Shown piece after piece: positions 12,130-50,293 of a DNA stretch of 64,000 nt. Position numbers and translations under genes: made by a program. Source of the stretch: Eledone cirrhosa (taxonomy: Eukaryota); NCBI GenBank assembly GCA_964016885.1, contig OZ024742.1, positions 121,086,001-121,150,000 of the forward strand, read 5' to 3'. The notes beneath the pieces were generated by a model. It ran no database searches. It saw only the letters and a list, made by a program, of their open reading frames with translations, and was not told where the DNA came from. Numbering within the stretch: position 1 is the stretch's first letter; each line of letters begins with the position of its first letter.

Positions 12130-12224
12130 AATGGGAACAAAGAATCAGTATTGCATCATATACATATCTAATGACATATTACATGTTTCCCTGCCGATCA
12201 GCTCACCTATATATATATATATAT

Positions 12225-12570
12225 CATCATTATCATCATTTTACATCCGCTTTTCCCTGCTTGCAAGGGTGGGACGGTTCTTATTCAGCACAGCATCTCT
12301 CCACTTGTCACGGTCCTTCATCATCTCCACTGTGAGGTTCAGTGATCTGAGGTCTGTTCTCACCACCTCCGCCCATGTTTTTCGTGGTCTACCTCTACCA
12401 CGTCTTCCTTCAACTGGGATTTCCTGGCACTTCTTCACCCATCGATCATCCTCCATGCGCATCACATGTCCATACCACCGCAGTCTCCTCTTTCGCACAC
12501 TATATTCTATCCGTCTGAGACACAGTTTCTCTCTCAACACTTCCATGCTGGGTCGTTCACGCACATTGGC
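12225..12570 (-). mobile_element. RTE LINE 3' fragment
   Basis: RRLRWYGHVMRMEDDRWVKKCQEIPVEGRRGRGRPRKTW; closely matches the 3' end of the 17575-19580 element. Confidence 0.9.
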
Positions 12571-12596
12571 ATAAATATAAATATATATATAAATAT

Positions 12597-12930
12597 GGAG
12601 GCACATGGCTTAGTGGTTAGAGCATTGGCCTTGCAATCGAAAGGTTGTGAGTTCAATTCTCAGACCGGGTGATGTGTTGTTTCCTTGAGCAAGACACTTT
12701 ATTTCACATTGCTCCAGTTTACTCAGCTGTAGAAATGAGATGATAGGGACTGGGGTCCCTATCATTCCACTGTAAAGTGGTCGTGGAGGTGCCACGGCAA
12801 AAAAGCACCCAGCACTCACTGTAAATGAGGTTGGTGTTAGGAAGGGCATCTAGCTGTAGAAATCAAGCCAGAATCAGTTCCCGTCCCACTCTTGCAAGCA
12901 GGGAAAAGCGGATGTAAAATGAAATGAAAA
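12597..12930 (+). mobile_element. tRNA-derived SINE (tggcttagtggttag head, ccttgagcaagacactttatttcac core) with an RTE-derived 3' tail; near-identical copy at 14751-15075
   Basis: A and B boxes present. The tail gtggtcgtggaggtgccacggc...ttggtgttaggaagggcatc matches the RTE 3' UTR at 16872-16965. Confidence 0.8.
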
Positions 12931-12949
12931 AAATGAATATATATATAAA

Positions 12950-13875
12950 TATATAACCAAGGATTAGCATGGTTCGTTGATTACTCAATGAATACAATTT
13001 TACAATAGATTAGAAGCACTCAACTGAAAAGTTTTCCTGGAGTTTGTTTTTAATATTATTCAAAATATTAACAAATGAAAAACATTCTCACAATCAAAAT
13101 ATACACTTCATCACATATACCTCAAAGGCACCGCGCTGTTCCTTCAGTATGTCCCCATCAGACAAAATACATGATCTGACACACGACATGCCGCTACGGT
13201 CTTGATTATATTGACTGCCAATACTGGAATTGAATAATCAAGACTGTAGCAGTATGTCACATATCAAATCATGCACTTTGTCCGATGAGGACGCACTGAA
13301 AAAACAACACAGCACCCCTGAAATATATATAATAGTATATATATATAAAAGTATATATCCTGATTATGAGGACACCTTTCATTTGTTAATATTTTGAATA
13401 ATATATAAATATATATATATATATATAAATATTCAATGATATTAAATAAATGGAAACTATATTTATAAAACAATATTTATTCTATTATATATATTTCAAG
13501 GGCACCAAAAAACCCCTTGGTATGCCTTCAACAGACAAAACACAAAGAGCGCCCTACGAATCTCGACACAGCCAAGGACAATCATACCCTATCAGTTGAA
13601 TATTCCCAGGGAATATTCAACTGATAAGGCATGATCATCCTTGGCCATGTCAAAATTTACAAAACACTCCTTGTACTTTATCTGATGAAAGCGTACAAGC
13701 TCCTTTGGCACCCCTGAACCCTGAAACATATATAACAGAACAAATATGGTTTCATATATATAGTTTCCATTTATTTAATATTGAATATTTACTCCAGAAA
13801 TCTGTCTAGTGTTCTGAATCAGTTATAAACATTTATATTTGTTGGATTTCCAACAAATTAAATATACCTTCTACT

Positions 13876-13945
<70 letters not shown>

Positions 13946-14260
13946 TACAATGATAAATGGAAACTACATTTATAAAACCATACCTACTCCATCATATATA
14001 CCTCAAGGGTACCAAAACTTTGGTATACTTTCATCAGATAAAACACGAAGTGTGTTTTATATTTGTTGAGTTACCAACAAATTGAATATCGCTTTTCCTT
14101 GTATATAACTATATATATAGTTAAATATAGTTTCCATTTATTTAATATCATTGTATATGATACTCCAAAAAACTTGTTGAGTGTTCTGAATCAGTTATAA
14201 ACATTTATATTTGTTGAATTACCAACAAATTGAATATCCCTTCTGCTTATATAAATATAT
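12950..14260. mobile_element. Cluster of Penelope-like pLTR/HHR fold-back elements with biased T>C substitutions
   Basis: Hairpins 13122-13321 and 13521-13695 carry degenerate HHR cores and share flanks (aaatggaaactatatttataaaac) with the 17215-17545 element. A ttgttgaattaccaacaa module is repeated near 13840, 14065 and 14210. Confidence 0.65.
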
Positions 14261-14595: not shown

Positions 14596-14750
14596 AATAT
14601 AAATATATATATATATAAATATATATATATATAAATATATAAATATATATATAAATATATAAATATATATATAAATATAAATATATATATATATAAATAT
14701 AAATATAGATATAAATATAAATATATATATAAATATAAATATATATATAT
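14250..14750. repeat. About 500-bp degenerate (TA)n/(TAAA) microsatellite
   Basis: Almost entirely A/T. Many shorter (TA)n tracts occur, e.g. 11250, 12050, 13880, 17110, 40260, 42458, 43060, 46702, 48690. Confidence 0.95.
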
Positions 14751-15094
14751 AGAGCATTGGCCTTGCAATCGAAAGGTTGTGAGTTCAATCCTCAGACCGG
14801 GTGATGTGTTGTTTCCTTGAGCAAGACACTTTATTTCACATTGCTCCAGTTTACTCAGATGTAGAAATGAGATGATAGGGACTGGGGTCCCTATCATTCC
14901 ACTGCAAAGTGGTCGTGGAGGTGCCACGGCAAAAAAAGCACCCAGCACTCACTGTAAATGAGGTTGGTGTTAGGAAGGGCATCCAGCTGTAGAAATCAAG
15001 CCAAAAATCAGTTCCCGTCCCACCCTTGCAAGCAGGGAAAAAGCGGACGTAAAATGAAATGATGATGATGATGATGATATCATTATGATAGATT

Positions 15095-17090
15095 ACTAAA
15101 TGAGGATGATGCATGGGAAGAAGAGACCTTACCCCAAGTAGACCCTATAGAGGGGCCAGCAGTACAAGTCAGCAGCAACGTAGTAAGTAAGGCAATCAAA
15201 GATATGAAGATGGGGAAGGCAACCGGTCCATCGGGTATAGCTGCCGAGATGCTGAAGGCATCTGGGTCTGTAGGTCACACTATAACCACACGTATTGTTA
15301 ACCAGGTAATACTAGAAGGTGTCATACCAAAAGATTGGTGCAGTAGCATGATTGTCAACTGCTACAAAGGTAAAGGCGATGCACTAGATAGAGGAAACTA
15401 TAGAGGTATAAAGCTGATGGACCAGGTCATGAAAGTAACAGAAAGAGTTATAGCACAGTTGATTAGGGACCGGGTGAAAATAGACTAGATGCAATTTGGG
15501 TTTGTACCAAGAAGAGGCACCACTGATGCCCTCTTCCTTGTGAGGCAGTTACAGGAAAAGTACCTAGCTAAAAGTAAGCCACTCTACTTGGCATTTGTCG
15601 ACCTTGAGAAAGCCTTTGACAGAGTTCCACGTGCTGTAATCTGGTGGGCTCTTAGAAAACTAGGAGTAGATGAATGGCTTGTGAAAGCGGTACAAGCCAT
15701 GTATAGGGGAACAGTCAGCAAAGTTAGGATTAGCAATGAGTATAGCGAGGAATTTAGCGTACAAGTTGGGGTCCACCAGGGCTCTGTTCTTAGCCCCCCT
15801 CCTGTTCGTCATAGTCCTGCAGGCAATAACGGAGGAGTTTAAGACCGGATGCCCATGGGAACTCCTGTATGCTGATGACCTCGCACTCATAGCTGAATCT
15901 ATGGTAGAACTTGAGAATAAATTCCAAACTTGGAAGCAGGGACTAGAAAGAAAGGGTCTCAAAGTCAACATGACAAAGACTAAGGTCCTTGTAAGTAGAC
16001 GAGAAAACAGAACCCAGATCCTCAGGGAAATGGCCTTGCTCAGTATGTAGGAAAGGTGTAGGTAGGAACTCCATTCTCTGCCCCAAATGCAAACAATGGG
16101 TACACAAGAGATGTAGCAGGATCTCAGGAAGCTTAATTAAGAATCTAGGCTTCACATGCAGCAGCTGTCCTGAGACAGCAAGCAGCAAACAGCCACAGGA
16201 AACAAGTACCACCAATCTCTGGGAGGGCTCTGTAGAAACAGTAGACAGCTTCTGCTACCTAGGTGACAGAATTAGCAGCGGAGGTAGGTGTTCAGAAAGT
16301 ACAATAACTAGGGTAAGAACGGGATGGAATAAGTTTAGGGAACTACTACCACTGCTAGCTGCAAAAGGCTTCTCCCTCAGAATGAAAGGCAGACTGTATG
16401 ATGCGTGTATCCGAACAGCAATGTTGCATGGTAGTGAGACCTGGGCACTGAAGGTGGAACACTTACGTAGATTAGAGAGAAACGAAGCCTGCATGCTCCG
16501 ATGGATGTGTAACAGTAATATACGTGAACGACAAAGCATAAATGAATTGAGAGAAAGACTGAGCATAAGAGGAATCAAAATGCTGTGTACAGGAGAGGCG
16601 GTTGCGCTGGTATGGACATGTGATGCGTATGAAGGATGACAGCTGCATAAAAAGGTGCAGAGCACTAGAAGTTGATGGAAACCGCGGTGTGGGGAGACCC
16701 TAGATGACCTGGGATGAGGTGATAAAAGCCGACCTTACCCAATTACACCTCTCAAAGGCAATGACATACGACCGTGACCTCTGGCGTCACGCAGTAATAC
16801 AGAGTACCCGACCTCCCATGGGTACAAGCTGAAGCATATAGACAATATGCCCCCACACCCCCCACCGCAAGGTGGTCGTGGAGGTGCCACGGCAAAAAAG
16901 CACCCAGCACTCACTGTAAATGAGGTTGGTGTTAGGAAGGGCATCCAGCTGTAGAAATCAAGCCAAATCAGTTCCTGTATGAGCAAGGCATGGTCAGCCG
17001 ACCAGACACTGCCCACAACAGGACAACCCGTCTAACCCATGCTAGCGTGGAAGAACGGACGTAAAACGGTGATGATGATGATGATGATGA
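15095..17090 (+). mobile_element. Young 5'-truncated RTE LINE (RT with PHD insert, 3' UTR, (GAT)n tail)
   Basis: KATGPSGIAAEML, NYRGIKL, FVDLEKAFDRVP, GVHQGSVLSP, LYADD; few disabling mutations. Confidence 0.95.
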
Positions 17091-17214: not shown

Positions 17215-17222
<8 letters not shown>

Positions 17223-17531
17223 AATATACAATATATTGACAAATGGAAACTATATTTATAAAACCATATTTATTTTATTATACATATTTCAAGGGCCACC
17301 AAGGCAAATTATGGTGCGCTTTCATCAGATAAAATACAATACAGATTTGTTTTATAAATAAATATTCACATACCCTGAAAAAAGACAACCTTAACGGTTG
17401 GAGCTTCCTGGAAGCTCTCCAACCGTTTTATCTGATGAAAGTGCACCATAATTTGCCTTGGTGGCCCTTGAAATATGTATAATAAAATAAATATGGTTTT
17501 ATAAATATAGTTTCCATTTGTTAATATATTG

Positions 17532-17545
<14 letters not shown>
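17215..17545. mobile_element. Penelope-like inverted pLTR fold-back (about 120-bp near-identical arms, each with an HHR) inside (TA)n
   Basis: 17225-17334 is the reverse complement of 17426-17535. An inner hairpin reads aacggttggag...ctccaaccgtt. Confidence 0.7.
17426..17487 (+). ncRNA. Type I hammerhead ribozyme in a fold-back element (antisense twin at 17273-17334)
   Basis: UUUUAU-CUGAUGA-AAGugcacca...uggugGccCUU-GAAA-UAugUA-UA/AUAAAA, with the short near-palindromic stem III typical of Penelope-associated HHRs. Confidence 0.78.
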
Positions 17546-17574: not shown

Positions 17575-19580
17575 ATCATCATCATCATCATCATTTTACG
17601 TCCGTTCTTCCCAGCTTGCAAGGGTGCGACGGGTCTTATTCAGCACAGCATCTCTCCACTCGTCACGGTCCTTCGTCATCTCCACCATGAGCTTCAGCGA
17701 TCTGAGGTCTGTTCTCACCACCTCCGCCCATGTTTTTCGTGGTCTACCTCTACCACGTCTTCCTTCAACTGGCATTTCCTGGCACTTCTTCACCCATCGG
17801 TCATCCTCCATGCACATCACATGTCCATACCACCTCAGTCTCCTCTCCCGTACACTACATTCTATCCCTCTCAGACACAGTTTCTCTCTCAACACATTCA
17901 TGCTGGGTCGTTCACACACATTGACACTGCACATCCAACGGAGCATGCTTGCCTCATTTCTCTCCAGCCGTCGCATGTCCTCTGCAGTTGCTGCCCATGT
18001 CTCACTACCATGCAGCATCGCGCTCCTCACACAGGCATCATATAACCTGCCTTTCGTACGCAGGGAGAAACCCTTCTTCGTCAGCAGAGGAAGCAGCTCC
18101 CTAAACTTCTTCCAACCCGTTCTTATTCTAGATACTATGCCCTCGGAACCCCCCTCCCTCCCATGCTAATCTGATCTCCTAGGTACCGGAAACTATCCAC
18201 CACTTCTATAGCACCCGCCTGCATTTGAAAATTGTGTCTATCAATGCGACTTCTACTGTACATCTACTGCATACATATTTCTCCCTACCTGTTAGTTTGC
18301 CTGCTATCCCACTACATCTCTTGTGTACCCAGGATCTGCATTGTGTGCATTTTATAGAATTTATGCCAGTTCCTTTTCTGCATATCGAACATGGCCATTT
18401 CCCTGACGGAATCAGAGTTTTATCCTCTTTTCTACTCATCAACAGTTTTGTCTTAGATAGGTTCACTCTCAGTCCTCTTGCTTCCAACTGCTGTTTCCAT
18501 AGCCAGAATTTATTCTCTAGCTCCTCTACTGATTCTGCTATAAGAACCAGATCGTCAGCATAGAGAAGTTCCCATGGACAGCCAGTCTTAAACTCCTCTG
18601 TTATGGCTTGGAGGACTATAATGAACAAGAGCGAGCTGAGGACTGAACCTTGATGTACTCCTACTTGTATCTGGAATTCCTCACTAAACTCCATTCCTAC
18701 CCTGACTTTACTGACAGTACTTCTGTACAAAGTTTGCACTGTCCTCACAAGCCATTCCTCAACACCTAGTTTCCTTAGGGACCATCAGATGACAGATCGG
18801 GGTACCCTATCAAAGGCCTTCTCTAGGTCAACAAAGGCTAAGTATAGTGACTTATTTTTCTCTAAGAACCTCTCTTGCAATTGTCTCACCAAGAAGAGGG
18901 CATCTGTTGTACTCTTCCCAGGCACAAAACCAAACTGCATCTCATCTAGTTTGACCCTTTCTTTAATTAGTTGTGCTAATATCCTTTCTGCCACTTTCAT
19001 AACCTGATCCATCAGTTTTATACCCCTATAATTGCTCCTCTCCAGAGCATCCCCTTTACCTTTGTAGCAATTTATGAGAATACTGCTGCACCAGTCTTTG
19101 GGTATGACACCGCCATATATAGCCTGATTGATGATGCATGCAACCTGTTTAGTGCCTACGTCCCCTGATGCTTTCAGTATCTCAGCAACTATTCCCGATG
19201 GTCCAGCAGCCTTACCATTTTTCATTTCCTTAATCACCTCTTGCACCCTATATTCTTCAATCTCAATAGCTGGTCCCTCTGTCGGATCTACTGAGAGTAA
19301 TATCTCTCTCTCCCATTCGTTCTCCACATTCATCAGTCTCTCATAATGACATTTCCAGGCCTCCTTTTTCTGATCATTCGTGACACTAAGTACACCGGCA
19401 TCATTCCGGACACATTTATCTCCAACAACATCCTGATTTGCATTAACACACTGCCTTGCAATGTGGAACACCGCACGCCTCTGATCTTCCCATCGCAGAA
19501 CATTGGCAAACCTCCTACTCTCAGCCGCCCTGCTAAGTACACCTGATGTCTAGCTTCTCTCTTAGCAGCTACTCTCACCC
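17575..19580 (-). mobile_element. 5'-truncated RTE LINE, second subfamily with a short 3' UTR
   Basis: ORFs 18785-19471, 18206-18748 and 17596-18030 give contiguous RT motifs (FVDLEKAFD, GVHQGS, LYADD). (CAT)n tail at about 17575-17593. Confidence 0.95.
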
Positions 19581-35457: not shown

Positions 35458-36471
35458 CCTAATCAGCAATCAGTTTCCAGAGCCCACCACAAGGAGGTCA
35501 AACTTGGGCCCTCTCATTACTATCATCACCTGATCAGATATCAGTTTCCAGCGCCCACCACAAGGAGGTCAACAAACTTGGGCCCTCTCATTACTATCAT
35601 CACCTGATCAGATATCAGTTTCCAGCGCCCACCACGAGAGGGTCAACAAACTTGGGCCCTCTCATTACTATCATCACCTGATCAGCAATCAGTTTCCAGA
35701 GCCCACCACAAGGAGGTCAAACTTGGGCCCTCTCATTACTATCATCACCTGATCAGATATCAGTTTCCAGCGCCCACCACGAGAGGGTCAACAAACTTGG
35801 GCCCTCTCATTACTATCATCACCTGATCAGATATCAGTTTCCAGCGCCCACCATGAGAAGGTCAACAAACTTGGGCCCTCTCATTACTATCATCACCTGA
35901 TCAGATATCAGTTTTCAGCGCCCACCACAAGGAGGTCAACAAACTTGGGCCCTCTCATTACTATCATCACCTGATCAGATATCAGTTTCCAGAGCCCACC
36001 ACGAGGAGGTCAACAAACTTGGGCCCTCTCATTACTATCATCACCTATTCAGAGATCAGTTTCCAGCGCCCACCACGAGGAGGTCAACAAACTTGGGCCT
36101 TCTCATTACTATCATCACCTATTCAGAGATCAGTTTCCAGCGCCCACCACGAGGAGGTCAACAAACTTGGGCCCTCTCATTACTATCATCACCTGATCAG
36201 AGATCAGTTTCCAGCGCCCACCACGAGGAGGTCAACAAACTTGGGCCCTCTCATTACTATCATCACCTGATCAGAGATCAGTTTCCAGCGCCCACCACGA
36301 GGAGGTCAACAAACTTGGGCCCTCTCATTACTATCATCACCTGATCAGAGATCAGTTTCCAGAGCCCACCACGAGGAGGTCAACAAACTTGGGCCCTCTC
36401 ATTACTATCATCACCTATTCAGAGATCAGTTTCCAGAGCCCACCATGAGAAGGTCAACAAACTTGGGCCCT
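35458..36471. repeat. 74-bp minisatellite, about 13.7 copies
   Basis: Unit cctgatcagagatcagtttccagcgcccaccacgaggaggtcaacaaacttgggccctctcattactatcatca. Units 1 and 4 are shorter variants. Confidence 0.97.
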
Positions 36472-43529: not shown

Positions 43530-44187
43530 ATATAAGGTGAACCAGTAGATTTGAGGTTTACTGAGGCCCTTTCAATGCAAAGTTATGTTGGTGCCACAAC
43601 ATCCAGGCCGAAACAAACGAGATCGTGTAGGTGTCACAACAAAAAACACACAGTCCACGCTGTAATGTGGCCGTGTAGGCAACACGGTAAAAACCTCCCA
43701 GTCCCACACTGTAAATGTGGTTGGTGTTAGGAAGGGCATCCAGCTGTAGAAAACCTGCCAGACAGTCCACGCTGTAATGTGGCCGTGTAGGCAACACGGT
43801 AAAAACCTCCCAGCCCCACACTGTAAATGTGGTTGGTGTTAGGAAGGGCATCCAGCTGTAGAAAACCTGCCAGACAGTCCACGCTGTAATGTGGCCGTGT
43901 AGGCAACACGGTAAAAACCTCCCAGTCCCACACTGTAAATGTGGTTGGTGTTAGGAAGGGCATCCAGCTGTAGAAAACCTGCCAGACAGTCCACGCTGTA
44001 ATGTGGCCGTGTAGGCAACACGGTAAAAACCTCCCAGCCCCACACTGTAAATGTGGTTGGTGTTAGGAAGGGCATCCAGCTGTAGAAAACCCGCCAGACA
44101 GTCCTATGCGAGCAAGACAACCACTCTTGCCTCAAGTGGGAAAACCCCCGTCCAAACCCATGCAAGCGTGGAACATGGACGTTAAAC

Positions 44188-49334: not shown

Positions 49335-50180
49335 GCTTTTATCACCTCATCCCAAATTTTCCTAGGTCTTCCCACTCCATAGCTTCCATCAACTTTGAAC
49401 ACTCTGCACATATTTATACAGCTGTCATCCTTCATATGAATCACATGTCCATACCAGTACGATCTCCTCTCCTGCACATTGCATCTGATCCCTCTTATGC
49501 CTAATTTCTCTCTCAGTTCATTTATGCTTTGCTATTCATGTATCACCCATCGAAGCATGGATCTTCATTTCTTTCCAACCTTTGAAGGTCCTCTGCACAC
49601 AGCACCTAGGCCTCACTACCATGCAACATTGCTGTTTGTATACATGCATCATATAATCTTCCCTTCATTTTGAGGAAAAAACTTTTTGTAGTTAGCAGTG
49701 GTAGTAGCTTCCTGAATTTGTTCCATCCTATTCTCACTCTGGCTACTGTACTTTCAGAATACCCACTTCCATTGCTAATTTGGTCATCCAGGTAGCAGAA
49801 GCTGTCAACTGCTTCTACAGAACCTTCCAAGAATGTTATAGCATTGTTTCCTGTGGGCATTTACTGCTTACATGCAATGGCCACAATTTCTTCTCTAATT
49901 CTGCCATAGCTTCAGCTATAAGTGTGAGATCATCTGTATACAGGAGTTCCCATGGGCAGCCAGTCTTAAACACCTATGTTATAGCCTGTAGGATGATAAT
50001 AAACAGGAGGAAGCTAAGAACAGAGCCCTGGTGGATACCTACCTGCTCATTAAATTCTTCACTATAGTCATTGTTAATCCTAACTTTGCTGAATGCTCCG
50101 CTTATACATGGCTTGTACAGCCTTCACAAGCCACTCATCTACTCCTAGTTTTCTATGAGCCCACCAGATTATGGTACATA
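49335..50180 (-). mobile_element. Decayed, internally deleted RTE fragment
   Basis: GCPWELLYTDD-like and KMKGRLYDACIQTAMLHGSE segments; the PHD region is deleted. Confidence 0.85.
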
Positions 50181-50293
50181 TATGTGTATATATAAGTGGG
50201 GACTATATATATATATATATATATGTACCATAATCTGGTGGGCTCATAGAAAACTAGGAGTAGATGAGTGGCTTGTGAAGGCTATATATATAT

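Follow-up and report, generated by a model that had tools for sequence, protein, structure and literature searches.

Probable germline DNA copy of an ADAR-hyper-edited Penelope-like retroelement RNA in Eledone cirrhosa

Results

The window, a stretch of 64,000 nucleotides from the Eledone cirrhosa genome (assembly size 3.0 Gb), contains at 12955-14250 three neighbouring hairpin-like relics of a mobile element, on one strand of which we counted about 70 A-to-G changes in all, almost exclusively in self-pairing stretches. The block had originally been delimited as 13055-14010, and its real extent is wider. Copy 1 begins on the minus strand with the 3' extension ('tail') of a pseudo-LTR (pLTR; 12955-13056), which its own hairpin leaves unpaired and in which 1 of 37 T was changed. 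Its left arm (13057-13210, minus strand), a pLTR with a hammerhead motif that is sense on the edited strand, had 20 of 60 T changed to C. Its right arm (13233-13400, plus strand), a pLTR with the motif sense on the plus strand, had 13 of 64 changed. The loop between them (13211-13232) had no changed T (0/7) and bears a private deletion, the junction of which occurs once in the assembly. Changes in the ribozyme cores had been named in the original prediction, and we located them at 13155 and 13120-13121 in the left arm and at 13283 in the right.

Copy 2 has an outer left arm (13428-13500, minus strand; 0/30 T changed), for whose partner arm the fold predicts pairing with copy 3, and an inner hairpin of a second subfamily (13501-13712), in which 14 of 32 and 9 of 39 T were changed. 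Its outer right arm (13713-13790, plus strand; 5/35 T changed) is predicted to fold with the copy 3 arm, and its tail (13791-13878, plus strand) is unpaired and unchanged (0/35 T). A 7-nt tandem duplication (13712-13725, plus strand) carries the changed base in both units, indicating that the change preceded the duplication. Copy 3 is a lone truncated arm (13940-14055, minus strand), with 8 of 28 T changed where it pairs with copy 2 in the predicted fold and 1 of 14 elsewhere. The remaining segment (14056-14250, plus strand) consists of a tail fragment, an arm end and a tail and is essentially unchanged (1/85 T). No target-site duplication could be read in the TA flanks of the block. The adjoining RTE fragment and SINE (12208-12930) showed no T>C excess and were left out of it. 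A third-subfamily hairpin outside the edited block (17221-17539) served as an internal control and was unedited, with 0 A.C and 2 G.T in about 140 pairs.

Other repeats lie in the window. Copies of a tRNA-derived SINE at 12597-12930 and 14750-15070 bracket the edited block and are mutually no closer than other family members; the SINE 3' end matches the RTE 3' end at 12208-12277, and the two are likely a SINE-LINE pair. The 112-nt unit of a tandem array at 43660-44098 is related to the middle part of this SINE. Inverted RTE LINE copies at about 15080-16810 and 17630-19350, some 73% alike, differ by 188 A.C versus 119 G.T (p = 1e-4), a skew that may reflect subfamily composition rather than editing. 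At 50119-50283 there is a near-perfect fold-back with a TA-rich centre, one arm of which resembles the RTE LINE at 15650-15700. On the minus strand at 35515-36397 we saw at least five tandem matches to the HDV-like ribozyme model RF02682, several of them about 74 nt apart, scoring 27-33 bits and thus under the gathering score of 44.

Judged by their sequence, the focal copies are ORF-less pLTR hairpins of Penelope-like retroelements (PLEs) and belong to two subfamilies. They display Penelope traits, namely an inverted copy, a tail on one side and insertion at (TA)n, and inverted copies, one-sided tails and (TA)n targets are among the features described for such elements (PMC8557442). One unedited 31-nt arm segment has 38,524 exact copies in the assembly. 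At seven of ten places taken from the list of its matches (L179-L182, L192, L194 and L195), inverted arms of the type found in copies 2 and 3 surround frames for a reverse transcriptase (RT) plus a GIY-YIG domain at the C terminus, which bears out the original assignment to a Penelope-like element with a hammerhead motif. In the PLE frame a cysteine linker precedes GIY-YIG; Atlas neighbours of the frame carry GIY-YIG, RVT_1 and HTH_animal, and Pfam scans of it gave no match. Each arm contains a minimal type I hammerhead motif, with the core CUGANGA, GAAA and UH and with stems I and II, which we regard as a putative ribozyme. Among 114 distinct matches to the motif in unedited loci, stem I was paired at 6/6 positions in 87 and at 5/6 or more in 102, while stem II is variable, its first two pairs being formed in 98. 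Stem III consists of two pairs and a palindromic loop. The Rfam hammerhead models gave no match up to E 5 in five unedited loci, and an Rfam scan of the window gave no hammerhead match.

Ungapped comparison of the arms on the plus strand reproduced every mismatch count that had been claimed for 13122-13321, 13521-13695 and 13955-14009. Between 13122-13208 and 13235-13321 there are 23 mismatches (20 A.C and 3 G.T), and between 13521-13607 and 13609-13695 there are 22 (19 A.C, 2 G.T and 1 A.A). The A.C share over both fold-backs was 39 of 43 transitions (p = 3e-8). Segment 13955-14009 differs from 17241-17295 by nine T>C and one C>T; the latter segment had been taken for a sibling of copy 3 and belongs to a different subfamily, but the polarity is the same against 21 closer siblings. 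Searches with the three focal hairpins yielded 90 loci, of which 88 are non-focal and some represent one place fetched twice. The arms of these 88 siblings differ by 0-7 A.C per locus, compared with 33 and 30 in the focal two. As a background, 85 inverted repeats in 490 kb of genome chosen regardless of content summed to 467 A.C versus 501 G.T; none of the 85 was strongly skewed at p < 0.001, the best being 12:1.

The sibling arms are near-perfect, showing that T is ancestral and that the focal C's are private. Against the column majorities of 22 siblings, T>C made up 34 of the 42 changes in copy 1, and against those of 21 siblings it made up 28 of 40 in copy 2; copy 3 showed 10 T>C against its siblings. 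These tallies are lower bounds, as a few changes beside gaps were missed. Most of the changed alleles are found in 0-1 sibling. Thus the column majorities support the original reading of the polarity, in which both arms underwent A>G on the minus strand. The opposite possibility, that C is the ancestral state or the mark of an older subfamily, with the siblings arising by C>T decay, is vanishingly improbable. We found no evidence supporting it, and it is contradicted by the column majorities, by the fixation of T both among 21-28 siblings and in the partner arm, and by the 38,524 exact copies of the unedited segment; the focal alleles occur in no other copy in the assembly, where the closest relatives are 83-85% alike.

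The changed bases were confirmed in read data. Three runs of a single sample, which may be that of the assembled animal, gave contigs that agree with the block wherever they match it; the runs are not recorded as DNA and contain 34-56% of the sampled words of 13080-13780, and just 45 of 671 words of that interval are present in the sibling loci retrieved. Contigs over 13061-13236, 13483-13619, 13590-13783 and 13600-13783 showed zero alternative letters at depth 7-8 in the three runs, indicating that the changes are not assembly error. Positions 13310-13427 were uncovered or passed over as repeat in these contigs, and one RAD-seq run from a different sample scarcely touches the edited block. 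An artefact, either sequencing or assembly error at hairpins or polishing with RNA reads, is therefore highly improbable. The possible origin of the confirming runs from the assembled animal, with their type not on record, would leave some room for it; against it stand the zero-difference contigs, a depth profile resembling that of whole-genome DNA, the clean assembly of the 88 sibling hairpins, the later 7-nt duplication that carries the changed base twice, and the approximately 30 changes common to 28 copies at separate places described below. The contig depth of 7-8 over 13061-13783 compares with 13.6 for one 845-nt contig of the same sample, a faint hint from a single contig that the edited block may lie on one homologue only.

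We found that the changes are confined to paired regions, as had been proposed: T was changed at 69 of 258 positions in paired arms versus 2 of 164 in the tails, loop and right end (p = 2e-14). On the edited strand of the focal copies, the proportion of A's changed depended on the 5' neighbour, being 30/78 after A, 31/84 after U, 7/35 after C and 1/27 after G (p = 6e-4). The left arms of other loci, outside the search pattern, gave 4/63 after a 5' G versus 168/449 otherwise (p = 1e-7), and the rates over all 19 arm pairs were.33 for U,.32 for A,.17 for C and.07 for G. The predicted sparing of A after a 5' G was thus seen in both sets, and upstream G depletion is described as a mark of ADAR (PMC2873906, PMC5625713). 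Before a 3' G, 12 of 22 A's were changed in the focal copies, and the 3' rates were flat (0.31-0.38) in the unselected subset; a weak 3' preference is reported for invertebrates (PMC5625713). In addition, the genome contains an ADAR2-like gene: PF02137 was found at four places, the top match being human ADAR2 (E 3e-102). From these data we infer that the agent was ADAR acting on RNA.

Other mutators fit less well. APOBEC DNA editing was rejected, as G>A plus C>T accounted for just 3 of 42 changes in copy 1 and 2 of 40 in copy 2. DNA-level hypermutation specific to TpA would account for the many changed T's that are followed by A, and we consider it very improbable: T's followed by T were changed as often (0.38 vs 0.37), only one strand is affected, copy 1 having 34 T>C against 4 A>G, and a pure TA run at 13880-13940 is intact. 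The original prediction had also raised the possibility of a defence that inactivates the ribozyme cores. This idea was not upheld, as 19 of 68 core A's were changed versus 172 of 494 others (p = 0.28); with no preference for core A's, damage to the cores would be collateral.

On the minus strand the order of synthesis is copy 3 first. The fold predicted for the natural minus strand pairs copy 3 (14008-13953) with the outer right arm of copy 2 (13719-13774). Copy 3 and this arm had 13 of 63 T changed, compared with 0 of 30 in the outer left arm of copy 2 (p = 0.008). The fold also predicts a 32+11-bp helix of 14153-14085 with 13434-13477 and an imperfect tail-to-tail helix, all of them unchanged. 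The unchanged helix with the right end calls for an extra assumption, that 14056-14250 lay outside the edited RNA, and we adopt it. At two other loci (L141 and L151), edited cargo is flanked by unedited, near-complementary pLTR ends (4 differences in 192 and 0 in 106, respectively); by analogy, 14056-14250 would be the right terminus of the insertion, copied from unedited pLTR RNA.

Together, these observations make it very probable that 12955-14250 is the DNA copy of one ADAR-hyper-edited, folded read-through RNA, inserted into the germline by a Penelope-like RT. A minus-strand RNA reading through copies 3, 2 and 1 would have folded, and ADAR would have deaminated its paired A's. Reverse transcription, during which inosine would be copied as G, would have started at the copy-1 tail (12955) at a TA-rich target and run through copies 1, 2 and 3, and the unchanged right end would derive from a second, unedited pLTR RNA. 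A PLE protein has been described that nicks and extends both target strands, starts within its RNA at the tail and has uncleaved RNA as its main substrate (PMC11167929); two-ended priming on two RNAs would place edited cargo between unedited pLTR ends. The original proposal that a hyper-edited hairpin RNA had been retrotransposed gains strong support from the PLE family described next. The RNA itself would have been a longer read-through transcript over several elements rather than the transposition intermediate of one hairpin alone. No unedited donor locus was found in the assembly, where the copy-1 loop and the copy-3 junction each occur once, with best relatives at 83-85%. The donor may have been lost or be absent from the assembled haplotype, or the junctions may have been created at insertion. 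For the focal block, a move to a new site is thus deduced rather than demonstrated.

One edited hairpin has been amplified by its carrier, a PLE with an intact 828-aa RT/GIY-YIG frame, in whose roughly 4-kb 3' UTR it lies. The family comprises 37 pattern matches, of which 33 were fetched and 4 were assigned from the matched string alone. Its copies occupy at least 33 places with differing flanks, and the changed strand is the RNA (sense) strand of the element. Compared with 44 unselected arms of their own young subfamily, one arm of each of six carrier copies showed 16-21 T>C and its partner 10-18 A>G, with almost nothing besides. Across 28 copies, four second members of local pairs having been dropped, each hairpin had 27 to 37 A.C. 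Variants shared among copies were 15 C/T versus 1 A/G in the arms, 14 of the 15 C/T lying opposite A, and 11 versus 12 in the unpaired parts. Furthermore, the shared arm variants fit the tree of unpaired columns (53 steps, compared with a mean of 81 and a minimum of 65 in shuffles), a tree that is poorly resolved and in which some T's may be reversions. Repeated rounds of editing and retrotransposition would be expected to leave such a pattern. In one copy of the family, at L138 (4988-7440, displayed on the edited strand), the TA run next to the edited hairpin has received a second PLE, which brings a GIY-YIG frame of its own and a TG-rich UTR.

The hyper-edited pattern recurs at some 50 further places in the genome. 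Two search patterns, each requiring at least three T>C in the 31-nt arm segment, returned 8 and 50 places; these comprise the window, 14 more independent pLTR loci, the amplified family and one false match (L146, a CA repeat, which we rejected as an edited hairpin). The arm pairs at 13 of the 14 independent loci had 9-52 A.C versus 0-4 G.T, and the 14th (L097) was checked by self-alignment alone. A PLE frame lies on the edited strand within 5 kb at just 4 of these 14 loci. At L141 an unedited twin lies 600 bp from the edited arm, which departs from it by 47 T>C and 9 changes of other kinds. The same approach applied to the tRNA-derived SINE gave eight places, five of them hypermutated; L186, L188 and L190 were not. 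T>C made up 51 of 58 changes in L184, which is changed along its whole length and has no inverted partner within 5 kb, and 27 of 32 in L185; L183 is also hypermutated, and two head-to-head SINE pairs are changed on one strand in both copies. The pattern is therefore not restricted to ribozyme hairpins, as had been assumed.

Edited arms were absent from two unselected sets, a random sample (0/14) and a set chosen by an unpaired anchor (0/44). The record is thus rare. A C>T control pattern gave 70 matches, mostly low-complexity A/T runs, and is a weak negative control; 30 of the places were fetched, and the eight SINE-like ones proved to be ordinary or old copies whose changes are mixed.

Several further features were seen at these and other loci. 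The left arms of L155, L145 and L141 are nearly unedited, with 1-2 changes versus 8-21 in the partner arm, and such hairpins should be useful for tracing the RNA source of each insertion end. TA-rich tracts next to edited hairpins, at L130 (3000-6000) and in the flanks of L142, L147, L150 and L153, are strongly CA-rich on the T>C strand (186 vs 12 words at L153), a bias absent at other loci; these tracts may be either (UA)n duplexes that underwent editing or TG repeats that have decayed. A unit of about 900 nt, arranged in tandem in L184, is common to L184, L185, L183 and L142; it borders several edited SINEs as well as one edited hairpin and may be another carrier element. In the unselected sample, a different short retroelement with inverted ends (L249, 7964-9157) had 12 A.C versus 1 G.T (p = 0.003) and is possibly lightly edited.

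These loci bear on two further explanations. In the first, DNA itself was deaminated, either by ADAR on the DNA strand of an RNA:cDNA hybrid or by an adenine deaminase on a folded single DNA strand. To our knowledge, ADAR activity on double-stranded DNA is not established. We judge this explanation quite unlikely, since a hybrid would cover the tails, yet the tails are spared; both arm orientations are changed on one strand, the edited strand is independent of the tail side, and the PLE family carries its changes on the RNA strand and not on the cDNA strand. In its favour are the whole-length changes of the unpartnered SINE L184 and a report that ADARs are able to edit the DNA strand of model hybrids (PMC12925331). 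The snap-back cDNA strand of the element was dropped as an editing target because tails occur on either side of the edited strand.

In the second, the three elements were already resident at the locus, whose transcript was edited and reverse-transcribed and then took the place of the DNA through RNA- or cDNA-templated repair of a break at the palindrome or TA run. With no donor in the assembly and no PLE frame within the 64-kb window, such write-back in place has some standing for the focal block, and it predicts the same ADAR signature. It is nonetheless unlikely. The contig over the copy-1 loop is unbranched, with no unedited allele in that run (contigs can drop variants), and the explanation fails both for the 33-place family with differing flanks and for the edited cargo between matching unedited pLTR ends at L141 and L151.

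Discussion

Our results lead us to favour, on balance, a broader view, in which the PLEs of this genome provide a permanent path by which ADAR-edited RNA reaches germline DNA, the cargo being hyper-edited hairpins and SINE pairs. An autonomous lineage would have ratcheted up its edits with each further round of retrotransposition, the genome would hold a datable germline record of A-to-I editing, and the strand-biased, TG-rich 3' UTRs of the elements may be edited (UA)n tracts. Relative to a family less than 1% diverged, single copies stand out by some 30 changes that bear the full signature, and one mobile lineage repeats the process. ADAR activity in the germline, the neighbours that the enzyme prefers and the folding of vanished transcripts in vivo would then be readable from the genome alone. 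Editing would also supply mutations for the evolution of retroelements in invertebrates, 19 genomes of which are reported to lack APOBEC-type editing (PMC4866542, PMC2873906). In addition, the edits tag the source RNA of each part of an insertion, which bears on the unsolved insertion mechanism of PLEs.

In the open-licence literature we found no described germline DNA record of ADAR-edited retroelement RNA in animals, and an earlier report may exist. Whether A-to-I editing feeds back into heritable DNA is presented as an open and argued question, approached through the statistical overlap of editing sites and A/G variants (PMC10209271). Hyper-editing of repeat-derived dsRNA has been reported in transcriptomes, for example in Penelope in lizard, in palindromic Harbinger in frog, and in octopus (PMC5625713). 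The Eledone loci resemble those cases in substrate type, density of changes and upstream G depletion; there the changes were seen in RNA alone, whereas here they are fixed in DNA.

The elements resemble Neptune-type PLEs, which have inverted pLTRs with hammerhead motifs, a tail at one end, TA targets, and an RT followed by GIY-YIG with a cysteine linker (PMC8557442, PMC11167929). Tails of 30-40 nt are given for the Neptune type, compared with approximately 90-100 nt here, on ORF-less pLTR hairpins, and edited copies are not among the features those accounts describe. The APOBEC 'DNA editing' of vertebrate LTR retrotransposons likewise leaves private, clustered and strand-biased changes relative to an unedited family (PMC4866542, PMC2873906). 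That process produces G>A through cytidine deamination of cDNA, whereas the changes here are A>G, lie in paired stretches and show 5' G depletion.

A further likeness is with avian retroviral proviruses, where ADAR-type A-to-G hypermutation has been described in the proviral DNA of Rous-associated and avian leukosis viruses (PMC12925331). In both cases an inverted repeat in dsRNA would have been hyper-edited and then fixed in DNA via reverse transcription. The avian proviruses are those of exogenous viruses in culture, whereas the record here is held in the germline of the host, in an animal genome. It differs further in its Penelope-like carriers, in a cargo that includes SINE pairs, and in the repeated rounds undergone by one lineage.
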